Shown: in pieces, positions 325 through 43,296 of the stretch
How the letters are laid out: each line of letters starts with the position of its first letter
Position numbering within the stretch: position 1 is the first letter of the stretch
Assembly: GCA_040004225.1 (NCBI GenBank)
Contig: JBDUBI010000184.1
Coordinates: 1 to 43,803, forward strand
Direction: 5' to 3'
Length of the DNA: 43,803 bases
Source of the DNA: Acidobacteriota bacterium
GTDB taxonomy: Bacteria > Acidobacteriota > Thermoanaerobaculia > UBA5066 > Gp7-AA6
Translations under genes and position numbers: made by a program
The notes under the pieces: generated by a model
The model's database searches: none
What the model was told of the DNA's origin: nothing
Seen by the model: only the letters and a program-made list of their open reading frames with translations

Positions 325-820
325 TCGCCCCAAAGTCCTTCCTCTCACTCATATTGGTACAGAGGACGCCGAGCGGCACGAGAGCGAGGCTCCCGGCGGG
401 TGGGGAGAGGCATCCGGAAAGTCGCAGAATCGCCGGGCTTAGGAGATTCCGTGGAAAATCGGGGACCAAGCATCGCAATCGCCGCGAGGCCGATCGAAGC
501 GCCCGAACATTCCCCCGGCGTAGCGCATCGGCGCGAGCGGCTCGCGCAACTTGGCGCCGGCCGCCGCACCCTCATGGCGGCCGCTCCGCAAAACTTCCAC
601 TTCGCCTGTACGCTGGGGTACATTCCGAGCGACGGTGGCGTCCGACCTGTTTCCGTTTCCAGCCGAGCGTCTAGGCGCTCGACCCCTGCGAAACCCTCTG
701 TAGAATAAGGCTATCCGGGGCGCGCGTCCGCGGCCGCAGCGCCCTTCTCCCTCCCTTTTTCTCCCTAGTCCCGCCTCTATCGCGGCGACAGCTGTTCTGC
801 TATTCTTCGCCGCCACAGCG

Positions 821-1070
821 ATGAAAAACCAAAGCTAAATGCCGGTACCTCCCGCGCAAAAATTGTTCGTTTACGGCGCGCTTTGTTCCTGTGCTGACCA
901 CTTAGACGCCGGCTCTCTAAGCTAACCGATGAAAGCGAAATGCAACGGCGGATACCTCCCCGGGCCAAACTCCACCTGCTTTCGCTGCGTCTCCTCTTCT
1001 TCGGATACGGGCCGCTGAAGCTGCGACGGATCCATGAAAACCCAAAACGCAACGGCGGGTACCTCCCGGG
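821..1070 (+). repeat. Array 1: three spaced copies of a 36-37 nt conserved motif (ATGAAAAACC..N..GGTACCTCCCGGG)
   Basis: Copies at 821-856 'atgaaaaaccaaagctaaatgccggtacctcccgcg', 929-964 'atgaaagcgaaatgcaacggcggatacctccccggg' and 1034-1070 'atgaaaacccaaaacgcaacggcgggtacctcccggg'. Core-to-core spacing is 107 and 107 nt. The array lies in the lower-GC intergenic region upstream of the first NRPS gene. A possible degenerate fourth copy starts at 1241. Confidence 0.8.
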
Positions 1071-1411
1071 TTAAAATCTGTGCGGGACGGCGGTCGCGCC
1101 CTTCGTCTTTAGGCGCACTGACCGGCGCGGGGTGCCGTCTGGCTCGACGGCCCGACTCTTCGGATCCCACTGCCGTGACCGCCGAAGTCTTCCTGCGCCA
1201 GAACGCACCCGAGATGGCGGAACGCCCCTTCTTGTATTTAATGAAACAAGGTCCCCGCCGTTACGCGGCTGATGGCTGCGTCGGACGTTTTCGCGCTGAG
1301 GGCGCCCCTCGCGGATTCCGATGACGCGCGAAGCGCGCAAAGCGTCTTCAGCAAGCCCAACCGTTCGAGTGGCAGGGCGCCCCGGCGGAGGGCGGCGATG
1401 ACGGCAGGCGG

Positions 1412-4400
1412 ATGAGCTCCGAGACGATCGAAGGTTATCGGCTCGCGCCTCAGCAGAGCCGCCTCTGGTCTTTTCAAGAAGAGGACGGCGCGGCGGCCTA
1501 TCGAGCCCGCGCTCGAGTCGCGATAGATGGGCCCGTGGATGCGGGACGCCTGCGCCGGGCGCTCGACTCGGTCGTGCGGCGGCACGAGATCCTCCGCACG
1601 ACCTTCCGCCGTCTCGCCGGGATGCACGCGCCGCTGCAGGTGGTCAACGAGCTCCTTCCGATCGCGTTTGCAGCCGGCTCGGAAGCTCCGACGCCGATCG
1701 ATCCCGAAGCCGGTCCCGTTCTCGTTGCCTCGCTCGAGAGACGTTCCGCGGAGGCGAGCGAGTTGTTCCTGGAGCTTCCGTCGCTCTGTGCCGACCGCTC
1801 GACTCTCGAACGACTCGTTTTCGAGCTCGGCGTCCTCTACGAAGACCCGGGCGCCGAAGGGAGCCTCGGCGACATCCTCCAATACGCGGATGTAACCGAG
1901 TGGCTCCTCGAGCTCGGGCAGAAAACCGAGTCGGCGCCCGGGATCGAATACTGGCGCGGCCTGGACTTGTCTGCCGTCGGAGCGCTCGCCCTGCCCTTCG
2001 AGGAGGTTCCGGGGCACGCGGCGCGCTTCGACCCCCGGACTTTCGACGTCCTGGACTCCGCCGCGACGGCAAATCTCGTGGACGGGCTCTGCAGGCATCT
2101 CGACTCCACGCCTCGCACGCTGCTCTTGACCTGCTGGCAGATCTTGCTCGGGCGTCTGGTCGACGATGAGCGGCTCGTCGTCGGATACGAGACGGATGGG
2201 CGGGGGCTGCCGGAGCTCGCGGCGGCGCTCGGTCCCTGCGGGCGCTATCTGCCTCTTGCCGGGAGGGCGGCGGAGGATTCTTCGCTTCGGGTCGCGGTCT
2301 CGCGCGTCGAGGAATCGATCGAGGAGCAGAAGGTCTGGGAAAACGTCTTCGCCTGGAACGCGCAGCTCCCTCCCGGCTCTCCGGAGACCCCCTTCTTCCC
2401 TTTTTCCTTCGACTACGCCGACCGCGTGTCTTTTCCCGGCGGAGACGCGATGTTCCACGTCGGAGACCGGCGCGTGGTCCTGGACCGGTTCAAGGTCCGG
2501 CTCCGGTGCACGCGGAGCGGCGGCGCGCTCGCGGTGGCGCTCGACTACGACGCGAACCGGATCTCCGCCGGCGAGGTGGAGCGGCTCGGCGCGCGGTTCG
2601 AACGGCTGCTCGAGAGCGCGGCGGCCGAACCGGAGAGCGCGGTGCGCGCTTTGGACATCCTGCCGGAGGCGGAAAAGCGGCGCCTCTGGTTCGAGTGGAA
2701 CGACACGCGCCGGAATCTCGATCCGGCGCCGATTCTCGAGCGCTTCGAAGACCTGGCCGCGCGCTTTCCAGAAAGGATCGCCGTCGTGGGAGAGCGCGGG
2801 CGGCTCACCTATTCGGAGTTGAACGCGCAGGCGAATGGGGCCGCCCACGGCCTGCGAGAGGCGGGCGTCGCACCCGACACCATCGTCGGTCTCTGCGTCG
2901 AGCGATCCGTCGAGATGATCGTCGGCGTTCTCGCGATCTGGAAAGCGGGCGGGGCGTATCTCCCCCTGGATCCCTCGCTGCCCGACGGGCGCCTGGCGTT
3001 CCTTCTCGACGATACGAAGACTTCTCTCGTTCTGACGCAGGCGCCGCTCGAAGAACGGTTTTCGGGAACGCGGGCGAAGACGTTGCTTCTCGAGGGGAAA
3101 ACCGGGGGCGCCGCGGCGAACCCGGTGCGCGTCGCGCGGGCAGACCACCTCGCCTACGTGATCTTCACTTCGGGATCGACGGGCCTGCCCAAGGGCGTCG
3201 CGGTCGAGCACCGGCAGGTCGCGAATTACGTCGGCGCCATCCTGGAAGTCCTCTCGCCGGAGCCCGGAGAGGTCTTCGCGACGGTGACGACTCTCGCGGC
3301 CGATCTCGGCAACACCTCCATCTTCGCCTCGCTCGCCTCCGGCGGGACTCTTCGGGTCTTGCCGGAATCCCTCGCAAAGGACGCCGCGGCGCTCGCCGAG
3401 GATTTCGAGGCCGAGCCCGTGGACTATTTGAAGATCGTGCCGTCGCACCTCGGCGCTCTTCTTTCCGTCGCTCGCCCCGAGCGGTTGCTGCCCCGGCGCT
3501 GCCTCGTCCTCGGCGGGGAGGCCGCGAGCTGGGATCTCATCGAACGGGTGAGGGGGCTCGCGCCCGGGTGCACGATCGTGAACCATTACGGGCCGACGGA
3601 GGCGACGGTGGGGGCGGCGGCATTCCGGATCCCATCGGATCTGGCCGGCCCGCGGCCACGGACGGTGCCGATCGGCCGGCCGCTCGCCAACTATCGGGTG
3701 TTCCTTCTCGACACAGCCGGCCGGACGGCTCCGCTCGGCACCTCCGGGGAGCTGCACATCGGGGGCGCCGGGCTCGCGCGCGGGTATCTGAACCGGCCCG
3801 AGCTGACGGAGGCCAGATTTCCGACCGTCGAGATCGCGGGCGAAATGCAGCGGCTCTACAAGACAGGCGACGTGGCGCGGTATCTGCCGAACGGTGACAT
3901 CGAGCTCCTCGGGCGCAACGACGACCAGGTCAAGCTGCACGGCTTCCGAATCGAGCCCGGAGAGATCGAGGCGGCGCTCCGACGCCACCCCGGGGTCCGC
4001 GAAGCCGTCGTCCTGGCGCGCGAGGTCGACGCATCGGCAAGACGTCTCGTCGCCTACGTCGTCCCCGAAGCCGCGGCCGAGGCGCCCGCATCCGCCGAGC
4101 TCCGGCAATTCCTCCGGACGGCATTACCGGAGTTCATGCTGCCGTCTGCGTTCGTCCGGGTGCCCCGAATCCCGTTGACCGCGAATGGGAAGGTTGACCG
4201 TGCGGCGCTTCCGCTTCCCGATCCCGCCCGGCCGGATCACGGTGAGCCTCTCGTTGCTCCGCGAACGTCGAACGAGCGCATTCTCTTCAAGGTCTGGGCG
4301 GACGTCCTGCGTCACGACCGGTTCGGAATCCACGAGAACTTCTTCGACCTCGGCGGAGACTCGATTCTCGGCATTCAGATCGTCGTCGGCGCCGCCCGGG

Positions 4401-5923
4401 AGGGTTTGCGAGTCACGCCGAGGCAGCTCTTCGACAGCCAGACGATCGCCGAGCTCGCCGAGGTGGCGGAGAAGCCGATCGTCCACGAGGGGCGCGGGGA
4501 AAGCGCCGCGACGGGGCCCTTCCCGCTCACCCCGATCCAGCACTGGTTTTTCGAGCAGCACCTTCGCGATCCGCACCATTTCAACCAGGCGATGTTTCTC
4601 GAAGGGCGGGAGCTCCTCGACGCATCCGCCCTGGAGGCGGCGGTCGACCTGCTCGTTGCGCGCCACGACGCGCTCCGCCTGAGGTTCTTCCTGGAGGCCG
4701 ACCGCTGGCGTCAGACTGAGGTGGAGAGCCATGCCCGGGGCGTCTTCTCGGCGGTCCGGCTCGAGGGCCGTTCCGACGCGGAGCAGGCGAAAATGATCGA
4801 GGAGGCGGCCGACACGGCGCAGGCATCGCTCGACCCGTTTCGCGGTCCGCTCGCCCGCGCGCTGTTCTTCGATCTGGGTCCGGCGAGGCCGCCCCGTCTC
4901 CTTCTCGTCGTCCATCACCTCGCAGTGGACGCCGTGTCGTGGCGCGTTTTGCTCGAGGATCTCCAGGTGTCGTATCGACAGCTCCTCGCTGGCGAGCCGC
5001 CCCACCTGGGCCCGAAAACGGCTTCGTTCCGCGCCTGGGCAGAGATACTGAACGAGGCGGCGGCGTCCGGCGTCTTCGATGAGGAATCCGGCTACTGGCA
5101 GTCTCGGCGCGACCCGGCGGGTTTTGACGTGCCGTTCGATTTCGAAGGCGAGAACACGGTTGCGTCCGAGCGGAGCGTCGAATCCCTCTTTTCACGGGAA
5201 GAAACGTCGGCGCTCCTCACGGAGGTTCCGGGGATCTACCGCACCCGCATCAACGACGTGCTGCTCGCCGCGCTCGCCGACGCGCTCACGCCGTGGACGG
5301 GGTCTCGCGTCGTTTCGATCGTTCTCGAAGGCCACGGACGCGAGGAGATCGCGCCCGGAATCGACGTGTCGCGAACAGTTGGATGGTTCACGTCCCGTTT
5401 CCCCGTGCTGCTGGAGGTTCCGGAGGCCGCGGACCCCGGCGAGAAGCTCGTCGCGGTCAAGGAGCAGCTGAGGGCGGTTCCGCGGAACGGCATCGGGTAC
5501 GGAGTCTTTCGTTATCTCGGCCCAACGGACCGGCTCGGCGCCTCGCCCGACCCCTCGGTCAGCTTCAACTACCTGGGTCAGCTCGACCGGCTTCTTCCCG
5601 AAGACTCTTTGTGGAAGCCGCTGGCCTCCGTTCCGGGCGCCCCGCGCAGCGCGCGAAACCGCCGGCGGTATCCGCTTTCGATCGAGGGGATGGTTCGGGA
5701 CGGGCGCCTGCGCTTCTCTTGGCTGTACAGCGAGAACCTTCACCGCCGCGAGACGGTTGCCGCACTGGCGGAGCGCTTCGAAGTGTCCTTGAGGGCAATC
5801 CTTCTACACTGCCGTACGGCGGAGCCTCGCTACACGCCCTCCGACTTTCCCGGCGCGAGGATGAGCTCGAAAGACCTCGAAACGCTCGTCGCCAGGATGA
5901 AGCCACCGACGGCCGGACGGTAG
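1412..5923 (+). CDS. NRPS, C(non-canonical)-A-T-E; predicted D-Asp module
   Basis: 1503-aa ORF. C-like domain: 'LAPQQSRLWSF' and 'RRHEILRTTF' are present, but the HHxxxDG position reads 'LPSLCADRS' (nt 1775-1801). A domain: 'LAYVIFTSGSTGLPKGV', 'NHYGPTEATVG', 'YKTGDVARYLPNGDIELLGRNDDQVKLHGFRIEPGEIE', 'NGKVDR'; code read by eye is DLTKVGHVGK, close to the Asp code. T domain: 'FFDLGGDSILGIQ'. E domain: 'PIQHWFF', 'HHLAVDAVSW' (nt 4913), 'LEGHGREE', 'RTVGWFTSRFP', 'FNYLGQ'. C-terminal tail: 'TPSDFPGARMSSKDLETLV'. Confidence 0.93.
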   Translation: MSSETIEGYRLAPQQSRLWSFQEEDGAAAYRARARVAIDGPVDAGRLRRALDSVVRRHEILRTTFRRLAGMHAPLQVVNELLPIAFAAGSEAPTPIDPEAGPVLVASLERRSAEASELFLELPSLCADRSTLERLVFELGVLYEDPGAEGSLGDILQYADVTEWLLELGQKTESAPGIEYWRGLDLSAVGALALPFEEVPGHAARFDPRTFDVLDSAATANLVDGLCRHLDSTPRTLLLTCWQILLGRLVDDERLVVGYETDGRGLPELAAALGPCGRYLPLAGRAAEDSSLRVAVSRVEESIEEQKVWENVFAWNAQLPPGSPETPFFPFSFDYADRVSFPGGDAMFHVGDRRVVLDRFKVRLRCTRSGGALAVALDYDANRISAGEVERLGARFERLLESAAAEPESAVRALDILPEAEKRRLWFEWNDTRRNLDPAPILERFEDLAARFPERIAVVGERGRLTYSELNAQANGAAHGLREAGVAPDTIVGLCVERSVEMIVGVLAIWKAGGAYLPLDPSLPDGRLAFLLDDTKTSLVLTQAPLEERFSGTRAKTLLLEGKTGGAAANPVRVARADHLAYVIFTSGSTGLPKGVAVEHRQVANYVGAILEVLSPEPGEVFATVTTLAADLGNTSIFASLASGGTLRVLPESLAKDAAALAEDFEAEPVDYLKIVPSHLGALLSVARPERLLPRRCLVLGGEAASWDLIERVRGLAPGCTIVNHYGPTEATVGAAAFRIPSDLAGPRPRTVPIGRPLANYRVFLLDTAGRTAPLGTSGELHIGGAGLARGYLNRPELTEARFPTVEIAGEMQRLYKTGDVARYLPNGDIELLGRNDDQVKLHGFRIEPGEIEAALRRHPGVREAVVLAREVDASARRLVAYVVPEAAAEAPASAELRQFLRTALPEFMLPSAFVRVPRIPLTANGKVDRAALPLPDPARPDHGEPLVAPRTSNERILFKVWADVLRHDRFGIHENFFDLGGDSILGIQIVVGAAREGLRVTPRQLFDSQTIAELAEVAEKPIVHEGRGESAATGPFPLTPIQHWFFEQHLRDPHHFNQAMFLEGRELLDASALEAAVDLLVARHDALRLRFFLEADRWRQTEVESHARGVFSAVRLEGRSDAEQAKMIEEAADTAQASLDPFRGPLARALFFDLGPARPPRLLLVVHHLAVDAVSWRVLLEDLQVSYRQLLAGEPPHLGPKTASFRAWAEILNEAAASGVFDEESGYWQSRRDPAGFDVPFDFEGENTVASERSVESLFSREETSALLTEVPGIYRTRINDVLLAALADALTPWTGSRVVSIVLEGHGREEIAPGIDVSRTVGWFTSRFPVLLEVPEAADPGEKLVAVKEQLRAVPRNGIGYGVFRYLGPTDRLGASPDPSVSFNYLGQLDRLLPEDSLWKPLASVPGAPRSARNRRRYPLSIEGMVRDGRLRFSWLYSENLHRRETVAALAERFEVSLRAILLHCRTAEPRYTPSDFPGARMSSKDLETLVARMKPPTAGR

Positions 5924-5925
5924 AC

Positions 5926-7782
5926 ATGTGCGGAATCTGTGGTGTCGTGAACATCCGGGAGCGCCGTCCGATCGACGAGAGGCAGCTCCAGGCCATGACC
6001 CGGACGCTGACGCATCGCGGACCCGACAACGACGGATACTTCGCGGGCGAGCGCGCCGCGTTCGGCGTCCGGCGGTTGAGCATCATCGACCTTCCTACCG
6101 GCAACCAGCCCATGTCGAGCGAGGATGGATCGATCCACCTGGTCTGCAACGGGGAGATCTTCAACTACCTGGACCTCCGGCACGAGCTCATCGCGCTGGG
6201 TCACCGGTTCCATTCGAACTCCGACGTGGAGGTGATTGTTCATCTGTACGAAGAGGAAGGCGAGGGATTGCTCCGGCGGCTGAACGGCCAGTTCGCCTTC
6301 GCGATCCTCGACGAGCGCGCCGATCGCGTGCTGCTCGCCCGGGACCATTTCGGCGTTCTGCCGCTGTTCTACACACGAGTCGGCGATACGCTGATCTTCG
6401 GCTCGGAAATCAAGGCGATTCTCGTCGATCCTCGCGTCGAGCGGAGGGTCGACCTGACGGGATTGGATCAGGTCTTCTCACTTCCAGGCCTGGTCAGCCC
6501 CCGAACCATGTTCTCGGGAATCGAGAGTCTTCGCCCGGGTCACCTCCTCGAGATCCGGAACGGTACCGTGCGCGAGGCCGAGTACTGGGACGTCTCCTAT
6601 CCGCGCGAGTCGGACGCGGTTTACGATCGGTCGGAGAGTGAGGATCTCGCGGACCTCGAGCAAAGACTCCTTTCTTCGGTCCGAAGCCGGCTGCAGGCCG
6701 ACGTTCCCGCGGGCGCGTACTTGAGCGGCGGGCTCGACTCGTCGCTCGTGACGAGCATGATGCGGTCCGTCTCGTCCGGTGACAGGAAGACGTTCTCAGT
6801 CGCCTTCGACGACCCTTTCTTCGCCGAGCGCGAGTACCAGGCGCTCATGGTCAACCATCTCGATGTCCCGCACCGGCAAATCGAGTTTGGCGTCGGAGAC
6901 GTCGCGACGCACATGCCTCAGGTCATATGGCACTGCGAGTGCCCGCTGAAAGAAACCTATAACGCGGCGACGTTCGCCCTTTCGGCCGCGGCGCAATTGG
7001 ACGGCGTGCGTGTCGTGCTGACGGGAGAGGGAGCGGACGAGCTTTTCGCGGGCTACGCGAGCTACCGCTTCGACGCCTTTGCCCGGGAACAGACCAGTCG
7101 ACCGGCATCTTGCGAGGAGTCCGCGATTCGGGAGCGACTCTGGGGAGACCCCCTGTTTCATTACGAAACCACCCAGTCGGCGTTCCAGGCCGTCAAGCAG
7201 GGACTTTTTTCCGACGCCGTGAATGCCCTGTACGCCGGATTCGACTTCACGCGTTTCGGCGTGATCGACCGGACCAAACTCGAGGGCCTCCATCCCCTCC
7301 ACAAGCGCTCGTACGTGGACATGAAGGTCCGACTGGCCGATCACCTTCTCGCGGATGCCGGGGACCGGATGCTGCTCGCCCATTCCGTCGAGGGGCGCTT
7401 TCCATTCCTGGATCTCGGCGTGTTTGATTCCGTGGCCCGCATGCCGCCTGATTTGAAGCTCCATGGATTCCGGGAGAAGTACGTGTTGCGAAAGATCGCG
7501 GCTCGGTACGTTCCGAAGGCGATCGCGGAGCGTGAAAAGTTTCCTTTCGCTGCCCCGGGCAGCCCCCAGCTGCTCGCCCGGAAGGCCGACTGGGTCGAGG
7601 ATCTGCTGTCGGAAGAGACGCTCGCGCGGCAGGGCTACTTCAACCCCGCCGAAGTCCGAAAACTGAGAGATCGATACGCCGCTCCCGACTTCATGTTGAA
7701 CATTCCATACGAGACCGATCTCCTGCTCATCGTCCTGACGTTCGGACTCTTTCTCCGCCTCTTCCAGATGCCGGACCTGTGA
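5926..7782 (+). CDS. Asparagine synthetase (glutamine-hydrolysing) family amidotransferase, AsnB-like
   Basis: The ATG lies 2 nt after the NRPS stop. N-terminal 'MCGICG' (Ntn nucleophile Cys), 'HRGPD', 'LVCNGEIFNY', 'SDVEVI', PP-loop 'YLSGGLDSS', 'LTGEGADELFAGY'. The ORF-track entry 5293..7782 is a 5' extension overlapping the NRPS. Confidence 0.88.
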   Translation: MCGICGVVNIRERRPIDERQLQAMTRTLTHRGPDNDGYFAGERAAFGVRRLSIIDLPTGNQPMSSEDGSIHLVCNGEIFNYLDLRHELIALGHRFHSNSDVEVIVHLYEEEGEGLLRRLNGQFAFAILDERADRVLLARDHFGVLPLFYTRVGDTLIFGSEIKAILVDPRVERRVDLTGLDQVFSLPGLVSPRTMFSGIESLRPGHLLEIRNGTVREAEYWDVSYPRESDAVYDRSESEDLADLEQRLLSSVRSRLQADVPAGAYLSGGLDSSLVTSMMRSVSSGDRKTFSVAFDDPFFAEREYQALMVNHLDVPHRQIEFGVGDVATHMPQVIWHCECPLKETYNAATFALSAAAQLDGVRVVLTGEGADELFAGYASYRFDAFAREQTSRPASCEESAIRERLWGDPLFHYETTQSAFQAVKQGLFSDAVNALYAGFDFTRFGVIDRTKLEGLHPLHKRSYVDMKVRLADHLLADAGDRMLLAHSVEGRFPFLDLGVFDSVARMPPDLKLHGFREKYVLRKIAARYVPKAIAEREKFPFAAPGSPQLLARKADWVEDLLSEETLARQGYFNPAEVRKLRDRYAAPDFMLNIPYETDLLLIVLTFGLFLRLFQMPDL

Positions 7783-10800: not shown

Positions 10801-10915
10801 CCTCATCGACTTCGGGATCGACTTCGACTCCGTGATGGCCAGCCTCTATCAGTTGAACCGCCTCAAGGACCTCTGCGCCGTCCGGTCCGCTTCCACCCCG
10901 GCGATCTCCGGATGA
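7859..10915 (+). CDS. Tri-domain loading protein: acyl-activating (AMP-binding) domain, carrier protein, luciferase-like monooxygenase (LLM)
   Basis: GTG start. AMP-binding motifs: 'LVLYTSGMTSRPKAV', 'MPLFHAHGL', 'WYTAAPTIHH', 'RFIRSSAA', 'IEAYGMTE', 'GWFRTGDQG', 'GGEKLSPYEVD', 'ATGKLRR'. Carrier: 'FFRLGGDSILASRL' (about 9550). A Pro/Ala/Ser linker follows. LLM domain from about 9845: 'FSLIFFSADG', 'YRLVLEASQFADRHGYTAVWTPERHF', 'VVLPLQNPIRVAEEWALVDNLSRGR', 'FASGWH'. Confidence 0.88.
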   Translation: MIPESGELRAPLFRHVFELLAGNEQLRPDAVAIVAAGRSPTTYRSLLANALGLADRLKELGVGRADRVAVVLPNGPEMATAFLAVSMAGVCAPLNPGYRANEFRFLLPDLGARALIVSAGDETSPARLAARELAIPIFEARPAVDSGAGGFTLTGDSTGPPASPGSPDADDLALVLYTSGMTSRPKAVPLSHRRICISAHNIAVALELTPGDRCLNVMPLFHAHGLIIALLSSLTAGGSVVCSGGFSAEDFFASVRDARPTWYTAAPTIHHAVVESAPEYRGILRGHGVRFIRSSAAFLPANVKAGLEREFACPVIEAYGMTECTQITSNPRTPDGRREGSVGVPAGPTVAVLDETGRVLPPGDAGEVVVRGPAVVTGYLSNPAADQSAFFDGWFRTGDQGVLSADGYLTLTGRLKEIINCGGEKLSPYEVDEVLMDHPAVSQAVAFGVAHPTLGEDVAAAVVLRGGAVATETELRDFAATRLADYKVPRQILIVAEIPKSATGKLRRVGLAEALGLAAPAEGRSAAAAPAPAPEESVERRLAKIWAELLKLDSVDMNANFFRLGGDSILASRLVARVRKEFRVELPLRSLFATPTVAELSSTIERSKSQPAPPTAPARERSRPAEPPSPEPEGFPTPASFPSVSSPAAVPAAEALSSSPVGERVHFSLIFFSADGSTASSDKYRLVLEASQFADRHGYTAVWTPERHFHPFGGLYPNPAVLGAAIAATTNRVQIRAASVVLPLQNPIRVAEEWALVDNLSRGRVAVSFASGWHVNDFALWPSTFENRKKVMFERLRIVRDLWAGKPFMTRNGAGIEIPVTSYPRPIQPTLPFWLSCQSDETFAMAGELGGNVITSMFLMSVEELAGKIAVYRQARARGGHDPATGQVTVSLHTFLAEDAATVREKVGGAYLDYLLVNLGLQADRVRAAGDEFEPSDADKEFLTRQASERLFNERGLVGTVAACAARVATLTAIGVDEIACLIDFGIDFDSVMASLYQLNRLKDLCAVRSASTPAISG

Positions 10916-19700: not shown

Positions 19701-20209
19701 TTTCTTCGTTGCGGGATTTCATGGCGGCCACTCTGCCTTACTACATGATTCCCTCGACCTTCATCTTCCTCGAGGCGCTTCCGCTCAGCCCGAATGGCAA
19801 GGTGGACCGGCGGGCGCTCCCGGATCCATCGCCGAGCTCACCCGAGCGGGAAACCGCTCCGGTGCCGCCCCGAACCAGAATCGAGCGCACCATCGCGGAA
19901 ATCTGGGAGCAGGTCCTCGGCGTGGAGCGCGTCGGGGTTCACGACAACTTCTTCGATCTCGGAGGTCACTCCCTCCTGGCGACCCTCGTCTTCGCACGCC
20001 TGCTGAATGCGTTTCCGATCTCGCTGCCGTTGCGCACGCTCTTCGAGAAACCGACGGTCGCGGAGCTCGCGGAAACCATCGAGCTCTCCGGCGAGATCGA
20101 TCCCGCGATACGCCGCTCGCCAATCGCCGCGGTCTCGCGCGAGGCGATGCGGGGCGACGGAGCTCCCGGAATGCGTCCTGCCGGCCCGAAAGACAAGAAC
20201 CGGGTCTAG
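13724..20209 (+). CDS. Bimodular NRPS, C(DCL-like)-A-T-C(LCL)-A-T; predicted Thr and Ala
   Basis: The ATG overlaps the upstream stop (ATGA, 13724-13727). C1 domain: 'LEDVYELSPMQQGILFH' with 'QHLLLDRWS' (nt 14192). A1: 'LAYLIYTSGSTGQPKGV', 'NMYGITETTVH'; code DFWNIGMVHK, the Thr code. T1: 'FFSLGGHSLIATQ'. C2: 'LSFAQQRLWFLDQ', 'HHIVSDGWS' (nt 17387). A2: 'LAYVLYTSGTTGRPKGV', 'DLYGPTEDTTY'; code DLFNNALTYK, an Ala-type code. T2: 'FFDLGGHSLLATL'. No TE domain. Confidence 0.93.
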   Translation: MTRGPGGRGEQDTGINQIDLEDVYELSPMQQGILFHTLYDPVNDVYLEQSVVTLRGKLDVARFAEAWRRVAERHSILRTSFHWEDLEKPVQVVQRDARVSLDVRDWRALPGDERSSRLAAFLEEDRGRSFDLTSAPLWRVALLQTEDDVHECVLSFQHLLLDRWSRLLLFKEIFTLYAASVSGNEAALPRAPSYSEYIAWLQKQDRNRTESFWRGTLAGFSAPTPLRSVGASAAGGGSGFTEASGRLSPDQTARLQALARNSRVTLNSVIQGAWAILASRYSGQDDVVFGVTVSGRPPGLPGVETMVGLFINTVPFRVAVPRETTAREFLQAVQRRFMKLREYEYSALLDVQGWSEVPRGTPLFDSLVVFENIDSDFDSDAASGGLKVVRTRGFGGRTNFPLTLVVNAEPALALRVFGEGGIFDPTTLSRMLGHLETLLDAMTDRPEQSVSNLPILTDAERRQILDDWNRRPATNSPTECLHRRFEAQADRAPESIAVEFDGQTLGYRELNLRANRLARHLRRFGVGAEVLVGVLLEPSLDLVVALMAVLKAGGAYVPLDPTYPPERIGFMLEDAQAVLLVTDGRAAESLEVPAGVLSVRIDADAASIAGEDGQNLDHEDSPTSLAYLIYTSGSTGQPKGVLVAHANVDRLFTSTEPWFRFDERDVWTLFHSHAFDFSVWELWGALRYGGRLVVVPRSVARSADAFHHLLAASGVTVLNQTPSAFRQLIPIDASSDTPLGLRLVIFGGEALDAGMLAPWLERHGCETPRLVNMYGITETTVHVTYHPMTSADVRKPFASVIGRPIPDLQVLVLDDELRLCPIGVSGELCIAGAGLARGYLRRPDLTARKFIRNPFAEDPADHLYRSGDLGRFLPDGNIEYLGRIDDQVKIRGFRIELGEVESVLARHPSVAASAVIVREDASGDKRLVAYVVGPGGSAPAASELRPFLKRTLPEYMVPSSYIALEKLPMTSTGKLDRRALPEPGETHLSVASFVAPRNPVEEMLAGIWAHVLRLPSVGIDDDFFSLGGHSLIATQVISRIRDAFGVELPLRSLFESPTVAGLAELIVVAQGEGSGAASPPLVSCERSEKLPLSFAQQRLWFLDQFEAGNAFYNAPLLLRLAGELHVDALEGAFHRVIARQDSLRTRFDSMDGNPVQTIEVSVEFRVARVDLTGLAEPQREAAAAARIAEDAAFPFNLEKAPLLRATLYRLDPREHLLLVTTHHIVSDGWSMDVFMRELAAFYEELSTGKPAALPRLPIQYADFAEWQRRWLSGEVLESQLSYWKERLVRLPVLELPTDRPRPPVQSHRGARCSLSLSNDLAEGLRRLSRREGVTLYMTLLSAFQTLLTFYTGQEDIVVGSPIAGRTRAEVEGLIGFFVNALVLRTSFSGDPSFREVLGRVRQVTLGAYTHQDLPFEKLVEHMHPDRNLASNPLFQVLFAVQNTPAVTVALTGLEVVPLAVDMPTTRFDLEAYVSETPSGLVCTFVYATDLFEPETIVRMMSHYQRLLESVVEDATRPLSRLTILTATERRQILEDWNRTEKPYPRDRTVPALFERQAEKTPERTAVVARAARLTYRELNERANRLAWYLKDRRVGPEVLVGLCVERSPEMLVGLLGILKAGGAYVPLDPTYPRNRLEFMLGETAAPVVVTLEPSSHSLPAGQFEVVRLDSDWPRIAAGSVENPPAIAAPENLAYVLYTSGTTGRPKGVAIEHRSTVGLLAWAREAYSDLELQGTLASTSINFDLSVFEIFAPLCWGGTVHLAQNALELADLPTRGDVTLVNTVPSVMKELLGIGALPRSVATVNLAGEPLSASLVREILRGGTAERRLLDLYGPTEDTTYSTCATRFSEGPVTIGRPISNKRIYILDRHLRPVPVGVPGDLYTAGVGVARGYLHRVDLTAERFLADPFRPGERMYRTGDRARFLPDGNVQYLGRLDQQVKVRGFRIELGEVEEVLAQHPRVGACALTAWQSATGDKRLIAYIAPRIGEEAPPVSSLRDFMAATLPYYMIPSTFIFLEALPLSPNGKVDRRALPDPSPSSPERETAPVPPRTRIERTIAEIWEQVLGVERVGVHDNFFDLGGHSLLATLVFARLLNAFPISLPLRTLFEKPTVAELAETIELSGEIDPAIRRSPIAAVSREAMRGDGAPGMRPAGPKDKNRV

Positions 20210-20353
20210 CGGCACTCCCCGGCACCCGGGCGCCTGTGATCCGTAAAGTATTGAAAACAAGGCGATCTGACTTCGCACGCCTTCCGCCTGCTCCGCGGAT
20301 CCGGATTCCCTCTTCTCCCGGGGTCGCAGATCTGTTATCTTCTTTCGTCCATC

Positions 20354-20570
20354 ATGAACAATAAATGCGCAACCCCGGGTACCTCCCCGGCGAAGGACCA
20401 TCTGCCGGCTGCCTCCGGCACTCTCGCGGCGCATTTCCCTTCCTTCGACTGAACCATGAAAAACCGAACGCGGGAACGGGTACCTCCCGGGCGGAGCTGT
20501 CGAGTCGTTTTCTTATTTTAACGAACGCAACGCATGTACAACTCAAACGCGGCGGCGGGTACCACCTGGG
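20354..20570 (+). repeat. Array 2: three further copies of the same 36-37 nt motif
   Basis: Copies at 20354-20390 'atgaacaataaatgcgcaaccccgggtacctccccgg', 20456-20491 'atgaaaaaccgaacgcgggaacgggtacctcccggg' and 20534-20570 'atgtacaactcaaacgcggcggcgggtaccacctggg'. Core spacing is 101 and 80 nt. The array lies in the 473-nt gap between the bimodular NRPS and the CmlA-like gene. Confidence 0.8.
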
Positions 20571-20682
20571 CCGACGTTTGTTCCGCGGGGCCCTCGTCTC
20601 GACTTTCTGAGAGTCATCCTCCCGCGGCGCGCGCCGGCGCTTCGCGGATCACGGCGGATCGCCCGCGGACACGGGGAGAGCG

Positions 20683-22278
20683 GTGTCGGTCATGACGCCC
20701 GTTTACCTGCGCCCCAACGCGTTCGTCGAGCCGCTTTTCAACCGCTGGTATGCGTGGCCCTACCTCGTCTCGCCGATGACGGCGGCGATGTATGTCGAAA
20801 GCCTGCACCTGCCCCTGCTGGAATCGTTCCTGGCGAATCCCCGGATGCATGTGGCGGCGCTCTCGAATCCCGAGATGGCGGGAGGGCCGTTCGTCGGGCA
20901 CGGGGAGGCGAGCGCGCCGGCCGTCGCGCGACTCCTCCAGGAAACGCGCCGGGCGAGCGCGCCGCTGCTGGAGTTCGCCGCGGCCGTGCGCGAGCTCACG
21001 AAGATCCTCGCGGAACGTGCCGACGGGTGTTCGCTCCAGTCGGTCTACAGCGCCGTCCCAGAGGCCCTTCGCGGATTCGTCGAGCTCGTCTACGACGTCA
21101 ATCACCATGCTTCCATTCGATTCCTGGAGCCGCTCCTGTACCGAAGCCGGTTCTTCGACGAGAGCGCGCAGAGCGTGTTGCTCTCGCTGGTCGGGGGAGA
21201 CGATCGCGCTTTCGTCTTTAACACGCCCCGACTCGAAGAGGGCGGCGGCCTGCGGCTCGACCTGCCCTATCGCTCCGAAGCGCTCGACGCGCTCTTTCGG
21301 ATGCGAGAGCACGCGCGACCACTCGCCTTCGCGCGGGAGGCCCTCGGAGTGGCGGAGTCGTCCGGAGGAAACTTCGAGCGCCTCTTCACGGACCGTCCGC
21401 CGCGTCTGCAAAGCCTCCCCCCGTCTTCCGGAGTCCGTGTCCGATATTTTGGCCACGCCTGCGTCCTCGTCGAGACCCGGGGAACGAGCGTGCTGACGGA
21501 CCCTCTGATCCCGTACGAGCACGGCGCCGGAATCCCGCGATACAGCTGGAGCGACCTCCCCGCGTCGATCGACTACGCGCTGATCACCCACGCCCATCAG
21601 GACCACTGCATGCTCGAGACGCTGCTGCAGCTGCGCCACCGGATTCGAAACATCGTGGTGCCCCGCAATTCGGGTGGGGGGCTCGCCGACCCGTCCTTAA
21701 AGCTCATCCTCGAGGCCGCGGGATTCCGCAACGTCTACGAGCTCGACGAGCTCGGTGAGATCGCGACGCCGGGCGGCTCCATCACCGCCGTTCCGTTCCT
21801 CGGCGAGCACGGGGACCTGAACATCCGCAGCAAGACAACCTATCTCGTCAAGCTGCTCGGCCGGTCCTTTCTCTTCTGCGCGGACTCGAACGCCTTCGAG
21901 CCGGCCATCTACGATCACCTTCGCGACCTTCTCGCCGGGCTCGACGCCGTCTTCGTGGGGATGGAATGCGAAGGCGCTCCGATGAGCTGGATGTACGGGC
22001 CAGTCCTGACGGCGCCGCTCGCGCGCCGGATGGACCAGTCGCGCCGGCTCGACGCGTCCGATTGCGAGCGGGCCATGGCGATGGTCGAGAGACTTCGGCC
22101 GCGCTCCGCGTACGTCTATGCGATGGGCTCCGAGCCGTGGCTCGGCTATCTCACCTCGATCCACTACACCGAACAGTCGCGTCCGATCGTGCAGTCCCGC
22201 GCGTTCGTCGCCGCCTGCGAGGCCGCCGGAGTCCCGGCCGCCGTCCTCCACGGCTCGAGCGAAATGTCGTTCGCATGA
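20683..22278 (+). CDS. Metallo-beta-lactamase-fold protein with N-terminal extension; CmlA-like non-heme diiron beta-hydroxylase candidate
   Basis: 531 aa. The C-terminal half carries 'ALITHAHQDH' (HxHxDH), 'FLGEHGD', 'FCADSN' and 'GMECEGAPMSWMYGP'. It is preceded by an N-terminal domain of about 250 aa. The stop overlaps the start of the stand-alone A-T gene. The family assignment rests on recalled CmlA architecture, not on a search. Confidence 0.65.
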   Translation: MSVMTPVYLRPNAFVEPLFNRWYAWPYLVSPMTAAMYVESLHLPLLESFLANPRMHVAALSNPEMAGGPFVGHGEASAPAVARLLQETRRASAPLLEFAAAVRELTKILAERADGCSLQSVYSAVPEALRGFVELVYDVNHHASIRFLEPLLYRSRFFDESAQSVLLSLVGGDDRAFVFNTPRLEEGGGLRLDLPYRSEALDALFRMREHARPLAFAREALGVAESSGGNFERLFTDRPPRLQSLPPSSGVRVRYFGHACVLVETRGTSVLTDPLIPYEHGAGIPRYSWSDLPASIDYALITHAHQDHCMLETLLQLRHRIRNIVVPRNSGGGLADPSLKLILEAAGFRNVYELDELGEIATPGGSITAVPFLGEHGDLNIRSKTTYLVKLLGRSFLFCADSNAFEPAIYDHLRDLLAGLDAVFVGMECEGAPMSWMYGPVLTAPLARRMDQSRRLDASDCERAMAMVERLRPRSAYVYAMGSEPWLGYLTSIHYTEQSRPIVQSRAFVAACEAAGVPAAVLHGSSEMSFA

Positions 22279-40400: not shown

Positions 40401-42497
40401 TTATCGAAGAAGGCTGGCCAGGGCTGGATTGGCCGCGGCCCGCGAGCGCAGGGAAGGTGATGCTGTGAGGGCGGTCCCGAGATCTTTTTTCGCGGCGACT
40501 TTGTCGCCTGCGTAAATCTCTATCGTCGCGAGCTCGAACCTGGCTTCCGCGAAGTCGGGCTCCTTCGTTTGGCTGCGACGGAGCCATGGCGCTGCCTGCG
40601 CCGTCTCTCCCTTCTTCAGGTAGAGCAGACCGAGCGTGCCGGGATACGGGAACCGGTCCCCGGAGAGCGAGGCGGCGCGGGCGAGATGGAGGAGCGCCGC
40701 CTCGTCCTTCCCGGTTCCGCGTTCGGCGAACGCGAGGTTTGCGAGGAGCAGCGGATCTCCAGGATCGACTTCCACCGCTCGCGCAAAGGCGACGGCGGCT
40801 TCCGTGAGCTTGCCGGCGCGTCCCAGGGCGGTTCCGAGGTTCGACCACGCAGCGGGCCGGCGCGGCTGGAGGCGGGCCGTTTCCATCCAGTGGGGAATCG
40901 CTCGAGCGTACTGGCCGCTCCTCGTCAGCACATCCGCGAGCGCGAACTGACTCTCCGCCTGCTCGGGGTCGAGGCGGACAGCCTCCTCCAGGGGAGCGAT
41001 CGCGCGGAGGAGATCGCCCCTTTTCGAGAGCGCCACACCCGTACGGAAGAGGGCGAAGTGATTGCCGGGGTCGCGCCGGAGGGCTTCCGAAAAGACCGCC
41101 ACCGCCTGATCGAACTTCCCTGTCCGCAGGAGATCCTCTCCCTGGAGGAGGAGAACCCGTTCGGCGAGGCGATCCTTCGGGTCGGCGAGGGTGCGCCCTG
41201 CCGGCGGCCCCGAAGACCCGCTTCCGAGGTATCCGAGCGATCGCAGGCGAGCGACCGTTTCCGGGTCGGCGATCCGCCGGGAGTCGGTCGCCGGGGCCGC
41301 CTCGAAGCGCTGCAGTTCGCGCAGGAGAGCGACGGTCTGTTCACGACTGCCGGAGAAAAGGTTCTTCGCCTCATGCGGATCCGCCCGGAGGTCATAGACC
41401 TCGGGGCGCGGGGCCCTCACGAGCTTCCATGCCGCTTCCCGAACTCCGGAGAGCGGGGCCCACCCGTAGGCGAGCCATGGCTGCAGCGTCTCCAGGTACG
41501 CGGTTCCCGGATCGTCTTTCGCTCCGGAGAAGATCGGCGTCAGGCTCCGGCCGTCCATCCCCGCGAGCGGGGGCAGCCGAAGCAGGTCCAGCAGCGTGGG
41601 AGTAATGTCGATCAGCCGCGCCGGCAGGCTGCTCACCCGGGGCGTCACACGTCCAGGCGCGTGGAAGAGGAGCGGGACGAGCACCGTGCTGTCGTAAAGG
41701 AAGAATCCGTGCGTGCTCTCGCCGTGCTCGCCCAGGCTCTCGCCGTGATCGCCCGCGAGCACGGTGATTCGCGATTCGGGAGGGGCCGCGGGCAACCCGC
41801 GGAGCAGCGCACCGAGGGCCGAATCGACATAAGCCACTTCCCCGTCGTAGGCCCCGCGGGGACCGGGGCGGAGGTAGGCGCGGGGCGGGGTGTAGGGATC
41901 GTGAGGATCGTAGTAATGGATCCAGAGAAACCACGGAGAGTGCGCGCGGGCGACCCACGCCAGGGCGGCGGCGGTCGTCTGTGTCGCGGGCCTCTCGACC
42001 CAACCTTCCGAGCCCGCCGGCAGGTGATCGTCGTAAACGTCGAATCCGCCGTCGAGGCCGAAAACCTTTCTCAGTGGATAACCGCTCACGAACGCCGCCG
42101 TCGCGTAACCGTTCGCCTTCAGCGCCCTGCCGAGCGTCGGCCGTTCAGAGCCGAGTACCTGCCCGTTGTCGCGGACGCCGTGCCGGCGGGGGAGCTCGCC
42201 CGTCAGAATCGAAACATGCGCGGGCAGCGTCAGGGGGACGGGTGACACAGCTCCGGAAAACCGGAACGAGGCGTTGGCCAGGCTGTCGATCACGGGCGTC
42301 GCGTTGCGGCCGGCCACCCAACCGAGGGCGTCCGGCCTCAGCGTGTCGACCGTGATGAGCAGCACGTTGGGCCGAGCCTGACGACGCGCGGGCTCGGGCG
42401 CGGCCCGGATCGCGAAGCGGCCGCCCAGAGTTGCGGAGAGCGCGACGAAGAAAAGTACACGGAACGTGTATCGTCTAGAGCGGCTCGGTGCATCCAT
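40401..42497 (-). CDS. Sulfatase-like (alkaline-phosphatase superfamily) protein with C-terminal TPR repeats
   Basis: Start chosen at 'MDAPSRSRRYTFRVLFFVALSATLGG' (signal-like). 'NVLLITVDTLRPDALGW' has Thr where sulfatases carry the Cys/Ser-x-Pro-x-Arg motif. 'GDHGESLGEHGESTHGFFLYD' is also present. The C-terminal third has TPR-like units ('FSEALRRDPGN', 'LEEAVRLDPEQ', 'METARLQPRR', 'FARAVEVDPGD'). The exact start is uncertain. Confidence 0.75.
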   Translation of the reverse strand: MDAPSRSRRYTFRVLFFVALSATLGGRFAIRAAPEPARRQARPNVLLITVDTLRPDALGWVAGRNATPVIDSLANASFRFSGAVSPVPLTLPAHVSILTGELPRRHGVRDNGQVLGSERPTLGRALKANGYATAAFVSGYPLRKVFGLDGGFDVYDDHLPAGSEGWVERPATQTTAAALAWVARAHSPWFLWIHYYDPHDPYTPPRAYLRPGPRGAYDGEVAYVDSALGALLRGLPAAPPESRITVLAGDHGESLGEHGESTHGFFLYDSTVLVPLLFHAPGRVTPRVSSLPARLIDITPTLLDLLRLPPLAGMDGRSLTPIFSGAKDDPGTAYLETLQPWLAYGWAPLSGVREAAWKLVRAPRPEVYDLRADPHEAKNLFSGSREQTVALLRELQRFEAAPATDSRRIADPETVARLRSLGYLGSGSSGPPAGRTLADPKDRLAERVLLLQGEDLLRTGKFDQAVAVFSEALRRDPGNHFALFRTGVALSKRGDLLRAIAPLEEAVRLDPEQAESQFALADVLTRSGQYARAIPHWMETARLQPRRPAAWSNLGTALGRAGKLTEAAVAFARAVEVDPGDPLLLANLAFAERGTGKDEAALLHLARAASLSGDRFPYPGTLGLLYLKKGETAQAAPWLRRSQTKEPDFAEARFELATIEIYAGDKVAAKKDLGTALTASPSLRSRAAANPALASLLR

Positions 42498-42540
42498 GCG
42501 CCCGGACGATGTCACGACTCTTCCCATCGATCTCAAGCAT

Positions 42541-43296
42541 ATGAGCAACCTGAAAAAGCCTGCCGGTTTGCCGCTCACCTTGGAGAAGGGAGAAGTGCAC
42601 GTCTGGATAGCCGACATCGGACCGGCGGCTGAAGACGTCGCAAGACTCGGCCGCGTGCTCGATCGCGCTGAGGTGGCACGGGCGTCGCGCTTCCACTTCG
42701 ACAGAGACCGCGAAGCATTCACTCTTTCGAGAGGAAGCCTTCGGGTTCTGCTCGGACGTTACATCGGCCAGGTGCCAGAGCGGGTTCGGTTCGGATATGG
42801 GCCTTACGGAAAGCCTTACCTCGCGCCCGAAATGGGCTCTGAAGAGATTCATTTCAACATTTCACATACCGAGAATGTGGCCCTCTTCGCGTTCGGGCGC
42901 TCGATGGAGGTCGGGATCGACGTCGAGCGAGTTCGCGCTCTCCCGGACCTGGAAGATCTCGCCGAACGCTTCTTTTCGAGGGAGGAATCCGAGGCCCTGC
43001 GCAATTTGCCTGAAAACGATCGAGCCAGGGCGTTCTTCCGTTGCTGGACCTCCAAAGAGGCATACATCAAGGGCATCGGAGAAGGTCTCTCCATGCCCCT
43101 CGACAGCTTCGCGGTTGCGCTCGATCCGGCAGAGGGTCCGATTCGTCTGCGGCTCTTCGACGCCCCCGGTGCCGTTCTCCGCTGGCGTCTCCAGCGTTTC
43201 GAGCCCTCCGCGGGGTATGTGGCGGCGCTGGCCGTCGAAGGGGAGAGTTTCGAGCTGCGCTTTTGCGGACACCCTGAGGGCGAAGGACCGTGCTGA
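42541..43296 (+). CDS. Sfp-type 4'-phosphopantetheinyl transferase
   Basis: 'GEVHVWIADI', 'YGKPYL', 'HFNISHT', 'VGIDVERV', 'FFRCWTSKEAYIKGIGEGL'. The start is chosen at 'MSNLKK'; in-frame starts at 42466 and 42496 are possible. Confidence 0.85.
   Translation: MSNLKKPAGLPLTLEKGEVHVWIADIGPAAEDVARLGRVLDRAEVARASRFHFDRDREAFTLSRGSLRVLLGRYIGQVPERVRFGYGPYGKPYLAPEMGSEEIHFNISHTENVALFAFGRSMEVGIDVERVRALPDLEDLAERFFSREESEALRNLPENDRARAFFRCWTSKEAYIKGIGEGLSMPLDSFAVALDPAEGPIRLRLFDAPGAVLRWRLQRFEPSAGYVAALAVEGESFELRFCGHPEGEGPC

Follow-up and report, generated by a model that had tools for sequence, protein, structure and literature searches.

Tandem short open reading frames sharing a nucleotide box upstream of nonribosomal peptide synthetase operons in Acidobacteriota: a candidate promoter-plus-leader cassette

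In classical leader-peptide attenuators and in those of the pyrBI type, a translated leader open reading frame (ORF) lies between the promoter and the operon. In mycobacteria, leaderless short ORFs form the attenuators of a ‘ribulon’, in which a polycysteine tract senses the amino acid (Canestrari et al., bioRxiv 10.1101/834739). Coupling by termination and reinitiation at ATGA or TGATG junctions has been established experimentally elsewhere (Huber et al. 2019, PMC6728339). The ops/JUMPStart element that is read by RfaH is a 12-nt element of pause-consensus type, the targets of which lack Shine-Dalgarno sequences, and the RfaH delay is thought to aid ribosome recruitment; among the NusG paralogues of long antibiotic or polysaccharide operons (LoaP, TaA and UpxY), LoaP and TaA serve antibiotic operons (PMC7819879). 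Here, we explore an element that shows likenesses to each of these systems, namely, a 15-base box, CGGGTACCTCCCnGG, that recurs in tandem short ORFs ahead of operons for nonribosomal peptide synthetases (NRPS) in a 43,803-nt contig of an Acidobacteriota bacterium (JBDUBI010000184.1 of assembly GCA_040004225.1; the whole of this contig is hereafter the window) and in related loci, denoted by L numbers.

The repeated units are, most likely, translated leader ORFs in which the peptide is irrelevant and the 5′ nucleotide sequence is under selection. Four features converge on leader ORFs, namely, the invariance of the ATG, the closure of each frame shortly before the next ATG, the overlaps of the last short ORF with the start of the gene served, and the fusion of some units with that gene in frame. 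As to how the element works, we lean, tentatively, toward a portable promoter-plus-leader cassette in which the short ORFs would form a termination-reinitiation relay and the box would act on the mRNA or on the elongation complex.

A conserved box in two tandem arrays

The original prediction placed three evenly spaced copies of a motif upstream of the first NRPS operon of the window, at positions 821, 929 and 1034. All three copies stand (ATGAAAAACCAAAGCTAAATGCCGGTACCTCCCGCG, ATGAAAGCGAAATGCAACGGCGGATACCTCCCCGGG and ATGAAAACCCAAAACGCAACGGCGGGTACCTCCCGGG, respectively), as does their even spacing: a repeat search yielded one repeat family at 824-863, 931-970 and 1038-1077, that is, with steps of 107 and 107 nt. 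Downstream of the ATGs at 821, 929 and 1034, the cores are GGTACCTCCC at 844, GATACCTCCC at 951 and again GGTACCTCCC at 1058. A second array, overlooked earlier, sits in the gap 20210-20691, between a 2470-aa NRPS ORF that ends at 20209 and a gene for a cmlA-like diiron hydroxylase, with ATGs at 20354, 20456 and 20534 and cores at 20378, 20479 and 20558. The window contains 8 matches to GGTACCTCCC with at most 1 mismatch against the 2.2 expected, a number reached in 0 of 100 shuffles; array 2 contributes two of the extra core matches and one variant core. A further, degenerate copy that had been suspected at 1241 is unsupported, having only ATGAAAC in common with the family, and the hidden Markov model (HMM) of the box recovers six copies only in the window at E ≤ 1. 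The only other HMM match there, at 32092 (8.9 bits, E 0.85), lies inside an NRPS gene. The stretch 1249-1265 is a 15/17 reverse-complement match to 1048-1064; this inverted 17-nt match, which joins the unit 3 box to a stretch 185 nt downstream, is confined to the window and may be due to chance. The features of the two arrays are as follows.

684..722, + strand: upstream conserved box GAAACCCTCTGTAGAATAAGGCTATCC, some 85-115 nt ahead of the -10 box, which may or may not belong to the element
798..806, + strand: array 1, extended -10-like promoter box TGCTATTCT, 14 nt upstream of the first ATG
821..857, + strand: unit 1 box, with ATG at 821 and core GGTACCTCCC at 844-853 (HMM E 5.7e-4)
929..1018, + strand: unit 2, a 29-codon ORF, core GATACCTCCC at 951-960; 15 nt separate its stop from the following ATG
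1034..1324, + strand: unit 3, a 96-codon ORF with core at 1058-1067; ATGA overlap with the next small ORF
1175..1206, + strand: stranded cmlA-like 5′ end GTGACCGCCGAAGTCTTCCTGCGCCAGAACGC inside unit 3, from base-for-base alignment with the cmlA starts of L010 and L058
1321..1401 and 1398..1415, + strand: two relay mini-ORFs, each joined by ATGA; the second overlaps the NRPS start at 1412
20232..20272, + strand: upstream conserved box GATCCGTAAAGTATTGAAAACAAGGCGATCTGAC of array 2, from alignment
20333..20341, + strand: array 2, extended -10-like promoter box TGTTATCTT, 12 nt upstream of the first ATG
20354..20452, + strand: unit 4, a 32-codon ORF, core at 20378-20387; 3 nt separate its stop from the following ATG
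20456..20521, + strand: unit 5, a 21-codon ORF, core at 20479-20488; 12 nt separate its stop from the following ATG
20534..20695, + strand: unit 6, a 53-codon ORF with variant core GGTACCACCT at 20558-20567; its TGA overlaps the cmlA-like ATG at 20692 (ATGA)

The first unit is a degraded copy, in which a 5-codon ORF (821..838, ending in TAA) is immediately followed by another ATG at 839 (ORF 839..925). The product that starts at 20692 is recorded as a 528-aa protein (P0001) with a CmlA_N domain.

The motif family, which is previously undescribed, comprises 56 distinct units in approximately 28 loci from Acidobacteriota metagenome-assembled genomes (MAGs) and soil metagenomes. The 15-base box is invariant across all three reading frames and at synonymous sites, which bears out the earlier suggestion that conservation here concerns nucleotides rather than a peptide. 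Among the 56 core-anchored units, C-G-G-G-T-A-C-C-T-C-C-C is invariant or nearly so; this 12-mer is followed by C, G or T, then by GG and then, more weakly, by GAAnGT. On its 5′ side, the box is preceded by an A-rich tract and a near-invariant ATG 22-25 nt away, and past about +20, paralogous units are unrelated in sequence. The palindrome CCCGGG that had been attributed to the core is present in copies 2 and 3 of array 1 only, copy 1 reading CCCGCG, and the likeness of the box to an anti-Shine-Dalgarno sequence is real at the sequence level.

As had been noticed, the copies of array 1 are read in different frames (MKNQS*, MKAKCNGGYLPG and MKTQNATAGTSR). In the family, approximately 38 of 52 units encode M-x-x-x-N-A-x-A-G-T-S, approximately 9 RRVPP and approximately 4 GGYLP. 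The frame shared by those 38 units and the similar lengths of the ORFs could point to a peptide, MKKRNATAGTS..., that is functional in itself or serves as a sensor, such as a small protein or a sensor that works by stalling of the nascent chain. Such a peptide is nevertheless very improbable: roughly a quarter of the units use the other frames (RRVPP, GGYLP) with the core intact, the C-terminal parts are unrelated between units, near-identical orthologues are frameshifted, and variation falls on first and second codon positions, with synonymous sites being invariant. Gly-Thr-Ser is always encoded by GGT ACC TCC, the variation is without 3-base periodicity and, in the codons that precede the core, conservation is highest at the third position. 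The precursor of a peptide that is made on the ribosome and modified after translation (RiPP), or a conserved small protein, was rejected on the same three grounds of multiple frames, frameshifted orthologues and invariant synonymous sites. The near-identical orthologues in question, L022, L032 and L042, are separated by 1-nt indels in the A run. At L022 6848, L042 1871 and L032 185, this run is A7, A6 and A7 plus G, respectively, and the frame and stop of the first short ORF shift; the differences in length could be either phase variation or homopolymer assembly error.

The tandem arrangement within a 5′ leader, together with possible GGG-UACCU-CCC and CGC/GCG hairpins, would suit a structured RNA, be it a small riboswitch or a protein-binding RNA in tandem. 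We find this hardly credible given the lack of covariation, the shuffle-like energies, the heterogeneous folds and the lack of an Rfam match. Indeed, the RNAalifold consensus consists of 3 pairs (GGG-UACCU-CCC) with 0 compensatory changes; a hand-named two-hairpin structure shows almost no two-sided changes, its mini-helix being 84% paired; the folding energy of the box is no better than that of shuffles, whether as RNA or as DNA (z -0.04 to +0.7); and the minimum-energy folds of whole units vary from unit to unit. The scan against Rfam 15 gave no family over either array or over five related loci (E ≤ 1-10), the sub-threshold matches being chance microRNA and small-RNA hits and one unrelated tRNA.

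Several other candidates were rejected. For a classical transcription attenuator, + strand terminators are at background in both arrays (1 weak site in array 1, none on the + strand of array 2), and the U-rich tracts mostly lack a preceding stem. A minus-strand terminator formed by the A run in reverse is seen at units 5 and 6 only, with weak stems, and was dismissed because the orientation relative to the genes is constant. Readings of the box as a sigma-54, extracytoplasmic function (ECF) or sigma-32 promoter misfit in spacing and in conserved positions, the would-be -35 part being variable by eye. In a search for an antisense partner, no reverse-complement copy of the box was found in any family locus.

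Start codons, the ORF relay and the possible action of the box

The original prediction had taken the frame differences between copies to speak against a peptide and in favor of an RNA or DNA element. Those differences do not imply that the ATGs go unused, and the invariance of the ATGs, the closure of their frames before the next ATG and the ATGA overlaps speak for their use. An ATG is present in 52 of 52 aligned tandem-array units, with GTG in the distant single-copy locus L068. In 27 of 29 distinct internal units, the frame that begins at the ATG remains open up to a stop at most 25 nt short of the following ATG (1-22 nt away), whereas the +2 control frame closes likewise in 5 of 29 and reads past in 15 of 29. 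The stop ahead of unit 2 alternates only among TAA, TGA and TAG (gagcTAAccc, gagcTGAacg, ccTAGcc).

At the far end of the leader, the last short ORF meets the main start in an ATGA overlap in window unit 6 (ATG 20692, TGA 20693-20695) and in L006, L010, L011, L012, L050, L058, L066 and L067, and in a TTGA overlap in L037, which makes ten ATGA/TTGA loci in all. The last ORFs range from 22 to 56 codons, so that the indels that separate them kept the frame. Longer overlaps with the main gene, of 9-15 nt, are found in L031, L053 and the L018 group, and in L057, L063, L064 and L007, the motif ORF is in frame with the main gene, the motif ATG being the only start. Among the 23 closest CmlA homologues, 8-9 start with M..RNA.AGTSRAKVYLRQN, and homologues of at most 60% identity lack this extension.

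Array 1 can be followed from end to end: ORF 821..838 stops at TAA with ATG 839 next, 839..925 is followed after 3 nt by 929..1018, and that after 15 nt by 1034..1324, from which ATGA junctions lead to 1321..1401, to 1398..1415 and to the NRPS start at 1412. In the orthologous NRPS leader of L003, the last two overlaps are kept (GTGA, ATGA) despite a 3-nt indel. Overall, the relay arrives at the main start in 19 of 20 leaders. The predicted probability of being unpaired, from -20 to +14, is 0.40-0.57 (mostly ≥0.5) for motif ATGs vs 0.34-0.41 for control ATGs, and a paired segment is predicted at +20 to +24 from motif ATGs. A Shine-Dalgarno sequence is present at no unit; L065, which is distantly homologous and lacks the box, features AAGGA as an ordinary ribosome-binding site.

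Some neighboring junctions deserve mention in their own right. Ordinary genes of the cluster are also tightly joined, as in TAG-ac-ATG before the AsnB-like gene (MCGI start; window 5923-5926) and in the ATGA overlap at the CoA-transferase gene (window 10912-10915), and clear Shine-Dalgarno sequences are rare ahead of the genes of this contig. Past the last unit of L043 (2830-2960; also in L028 and L048), a perfect GGAGGT is followed 7 nt on by a GTG that opens a 13-codon ORF, which is joined by a TTGA overlap to a 10-codon ORF stopping 5 nt before the NRPS ATG; the GGAGGU of L043 is complementary to ACCUCC of the preceding box.

An extended -10 sequence, GTTcTGnTATnnT, lies 11-15 nt upstream of the first ATG in 24 of 24 aligned arrays, at unit 1 only; from its position, the predicted 5′ untranslated region (UTR) is approximately 3-9 nt long. 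In many arrays, a second conserved box (about cgCAAACgCCTGcAGGAcAAGGC.ATC) is located 85-115 nt upstream of the -10 sequence and could be an activator site or an alternative promoter. In the window, the box at 684..722 aligns with those upstream of the arrays in L003, L010, L011, L012, L031 and L063 and of window array 2, and a sigma-70-like match, TCGACC-N16-TAGAAT, at 679-706 overlaps it.

We propose that the complete element would consist of a sigma-70-type extended -10 promoter, a 5′ UTR of a few bases devoid of a Shine-Dalgarno sequence, the tandem ORFs and the first gene of the operon. The two or three ORFs, of approximately 20-40 codons, would each open with ATG, an A-rich unstructured tract and the box. 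Ribosomes would enter at the first, almost leaderless ATG, would be handed on from ORF to ORF by termination-reinitiation across stops 1-22 nt before the next ATG, and would be delivered to the biosynthetic gene via the 4-nt stop/start overlap, such that the entire leader of 200-600 nt would be translated with gaps of no more than about 20 nt. Being translated nearly throughout, the leader would be protected from premature Rho-type termination before an operon of 20-40 kb. At its place 22-25 nt from every start codon, the box would act in cis, either on the mRNA or on the complex that transcribes it; it is the fixed distance from the ATG that ties the box to events at the start codon and that leads us to place its action there. 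Under the proposed mechanism, the box would serve as a checkpoint for ribosome loading close behind the RNA polymerase: only transcripts translated from their 5′ end would proceed into the 20-40 kb operon, a sequence-specific reader of the box would set the share of transcripts that do so, and repetition of the unit would multiply that control, with the peptides being irrelevant.

Several points weigh against this proposal. Approximately 45% of shuffled leaders also pass the relay test, which is thus permissive and weak alone. Shine-Dalgarno sequences are weak across the genes of this organism generally, so that their absence at the units is not distinctive. The premature stop in window unit 1 and a 3-codon unit in L043 and L048 indicate that a long ORF is not required everywhere, and in L028, L043 and L048, the last unit is approximately 150 nt from the main start, with the relay passing through further mini-ORFs. 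Many loci are related, so that the counts overstate independence. The fetched loci, which represent the carriers as MAG and metagenome contig sequences, contain no complementary sequence, regulator or NusG-like gene. Furthermore, nothing in the relay model explains the invariance of these particular 12-15 bases. Finally, translation of the units, the transcription start and the coupling are all features that we infer from sequence comparison.

An ops-like mechanism is one that we consider possible although doubtful: a specialized factor of the NusG family, or a similar one, would read the 12 bases as non-template DNA in a paused complex, the ORFs still being translated, and would make the polymerase processive over the giant operon and recruit the ribosome to a start without a Shine-Dalgarno sequence. 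The 12-nt invariant block is strand-specific, it occurs in leaders of secondary-metabolite operons of great length, where some leaders contain it more than once, it shows no RNA covariation, and its length is close to that of the transcription bubble. The consensus pause is G-10 Y-1 G+1, which GG-N8-Y-G fits; nearly all variants retain this pattern, and none of the 56 units has A at position +10. From the ATG to the end of the box, the distance is approximately 33-36 nt, about that of the RNA held by the polymerase plus the downstream footprint of an initiating ribosome. The ops element, too, is a pause-matching 12-mer with targets that lack Shine-Dalgarno sequences (PMC7819879). On the other side, the pause reading is post hoc and relies on a consensus of 3-4 bases, the likeness to ops (GGCGG-TA) falls in the variable part of the motif, and ops is usually upstream of its start codon, not 22 nt downstream. 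Searches of the fetched loci with phmmer, with Escherichia coli NusG and RfaH as queries, yielded no NusG/RfaH-like ORF (E>0.3), although such factors need not be linked. A more specific version, which strikes us as rather unlikely, would make the box a phylum-specific counterpart of ops, that is, a 12-15 nt signal in the transcription bubble or in the nascent RNA that would act, in two or three repeats, as a transcription-translation coupling checkpoint for giant NRPS operons, where the polymerase would be held approximately 33 nt past a start without a Shine-Dalgarno sequence until the pioneer ribosome loads, possibly via a dedicated elongation factor.

Gene context and origin of the cassette

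An exact-pattern scan of one genome per bacterial species (185,579 species genomes) returned 13 loci, of which 7 belong to Acidobacteriota or Thermoanaerobaculia MAGs, all with 2-3 tandem copies; the other 6, from other phyla, contain single copies at chance level. Scanning metagenome contigs for tandem cores brought in another 18 loci of the family, mainly from soil, amid unrelated repeats, and look-ups of cmlA homologues added 6 loci, 4 of them with tandem copies or a single copy. Throughout the family, the units come in tandems of 2-3, with a single unit in two distant loci, and every array lies upstream on the coding strand, with 0-250 nt between it and the gene that opens an NRPS-cluster operon. 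In most loci, the gene served is that for the cmlA-like hydroxylase. An NRPS gene that starts with a condensation domain is served in the window (1412), L003, L009, L028 and L043, a formyltransferase-NRPS gene in the L018 group and a TauD-like gene in L007.

Among the members recovered, the motif is specific to the leaders of NRPS clusters rather than scattered, and it is conserved in orthologous clusters: window units 2 and 3 are orthologous over their full length to units of L010 and L058, unit 2 corresponding to unit 2 of L010 and unit 1 of L058. Had the motif been scattered at large, or had it lacked conservation in orthologous clusters, the original prediction of a functional element would have been in doubt; neither was seen, and both outcomes favor a real element. 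That prediction had also failed to recognize the motif as a known riboswitch or a repetitive extragenic palindromic (REP) element, and it is neither, with no match in Rfam and all recovered members confined to NRPS clusters. Dispersed repeats of the REP or miniature inverted-repeat transposable element (MITE) type were rejected given that all members recovered from species genomes and metagenomes are upstream of NRPS-cluster genes, with the whole genomes of the carriers being beyond the reach of the scan. An array of clustered regularly interspaced short palindromic repeats (CRISPR) was rejected as well: there are only 2-3 copies at a spacing of 79-119 nt, different genomes share the ‘spacers’ in conserved form and, apart from 15 nt, the repeats are degenerate.

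That the same box stands at several operon starts of one cluster, as in the two arrays on the window contig and in L050 with L056, would agree with a DNA operator, in which the box binds a cluster regulator of the LuxR/NarL/GerE type and acts by roadblock or looping, the ORFs being incidental. GGTACC is palindromic, TACCTCC resembles the NarL heptamer, TACYYMT, and genes with a GerE domain occur near two loci, directly upstream of the single-copy locus L064, the only one with such a gene adjacent, and 8 kb upstream in L063, where the gene encodes a response regulator. We nonetheless judge an operator unlikely. It leaves unexplained why the ATG is invariant at 22-25 nt, why frames are open and stops conserved, why there are ATGA overlaps and why the strand is fixed; the 79-119 bp spacing is not helically phased; the palindrome is only 6 bp long; and there is a single TACCTCC per unit, with no heptamer pairs. 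Domain scans of the window revealed no recognizable regulator gene, Pfam scans of the array neighbors no linked regulator, and the nearest upstream ORFs of nine loci are co-directional cluster genes, none of them a regulator. Near-total invariance over approximately 28 loci is, moreover, unusual for operators.

The genes that precede the arrays are co-directional genes of the cluster, encoding adenylation-thiolation-thioesterase (A-T-TE) modules, a phosphopantetheinyl transferase (PPTase) and a dehydrogenase. In four related loci (L012, L037, L063 and L067), the PPTase gene stands immediately ahead of the array and cmlA; that of the window (42466-43296) is at the distant end of the contig, and no array follows it. 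In L003, a tRNA gene (63 bits; 2090-2162, +) is upstream of the array on the opposite strand. Unrelated metagenome tandem repeats that contain GGGTACCTCCC were encountered in L015, L016, L019/L025/L054, L024/L039, L029 and L049/L052, with periods of 24-25, 91-93, 110, 121 and 116 nt and no ATG at the fixed distance. The gene content of window 1412-37505 and of the related loci may correspond to a siderophore-type lipopeptide, as suggested by the CmlA-like and TauD-like beta-hydroxylases, the formyltransferase starter (L018 group) and the AsnB-like and luciferase-like enzymes.

The sequence of the units offers a clue to their origin. Together with GCGAAGGTC, the box corresponds to the N-terminal codons G-T-S-R-A-K-V of cmlA genes that carry the box in frame, and KV(Y/F)LRQN is the conserved start of the enzyme; given this match, the units resemble copies of the 5′ end of cmlA, next to the promoter, that were duplicated in tandem. 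Array 1 retains 32 nt of the cmlA start (1175-1206), identical to those of L058, yet serves an NRPS gene; compared with L010 and L058, there is a 24-nt deletion just before the stranded start, and the ATG is now GTG. The stranded start shows that the promoter-leader cassette is mobile, having been transplanted before another gene.

Such an origin could also be taken to mean that the units are neutral remnants, that is, tandem duplicates of the cmlA-like 5′ end that are kept alike by gene conversion and have no function. Apart from the match to the cmlA codons, this would accommodate the decayed -10-like boxes at units 2 and 3 in the L022 family and the 32 nt of cmlA that moved with the cassette in the window. 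It is, however, quite unlikely: the flanks beyond +20 have fully diverged while 12-15 bases are invariant over approximately 28 loci, frame-shifted copies included, a tract of 15 nt is implausibly short for gene conversion, the architecture of frames and stops survives indels, and genes other than cmlA are served too.

Comparison with described systems

Literature searches on leader ORFs in Acidobacteria and on the box sequence turned up only primers and general background. The box is without a described counterpart, and the element belongs to leader-ORF control, with no named family. Acidobacteriota are among the richest untapped soil sources of NRPS and polyketide synthase (PKS) clusters, and the switching-on of these clusters is barely understood. 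The element marks operon starts inside such clusters; the box would serve to find co-regulated operons in metagenomes, and the element would be a part to keep, or purposely to remove, for heterologous expression of a cluster. More generally, the arrays would provide a natural example of several leader ORFs chained by reinitiation, and a nucleotide signal at a fixed distance inside an ORF makes ribosome loading versus polymerase progress testable on starts that lack a Shine-Dalgarno sequence.

Like the classical and pyrBI-type attenuators, the element features a leader ORF, and many units have pyrimidine-rich tracts 45-60 nt after the box; unlike the classical attenuators, it has neither regulatory codon runs nor a conserved terminator/antiterminator pair. 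With ops, it shares a short, nearly invariant, strand-specific element in the leaders of very long operons, including those of secondary-metabolite clusters, and targets without Shine-Dalgarno sequences, but there is no meaningful similarity in sequence, and the box is inside short ORFs, at a fixed distance downstream of the start, and repeated 2-3 times. The ops sequence, GGCGGTAGnnTG, was not found in the box, the invariant part of which is CGGGTACCTCCC, and the GGCGG-like stretch upstream is variable. In common with ATGA coupling, the arrays have the architecture of a 4-nt stop/start overlap, in which the downstream start needs little or no Shine-Dalgarno sequence. The difference is that ordinary protein genes are joined in the systems described, whereas here, a chain of non-conserved leader ORFs of as few as 5 codons is joined, the only apparent job of which is the hand-over.

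Among known kinds of element, the leaderless sensory short ORF of mycobacteria comes nearest. There, a codon tract is read and a single short ORF suffices, whereas here, a nucleotide box is present in any frame and 2-3 ORFs are chained; no codon tract is shared among the units, the peptides of which differ by frame and lack codon runs. In both cases, however, unannotated short ORFs without a Shine-Dalgarno sequence are found, or in the present arrays predicted, at the extreme 5′ end of polycistronic mRNAs, one type of short ORF precedes several operons of a pathway, and control would be exerted via the ribosome on the short ORF.

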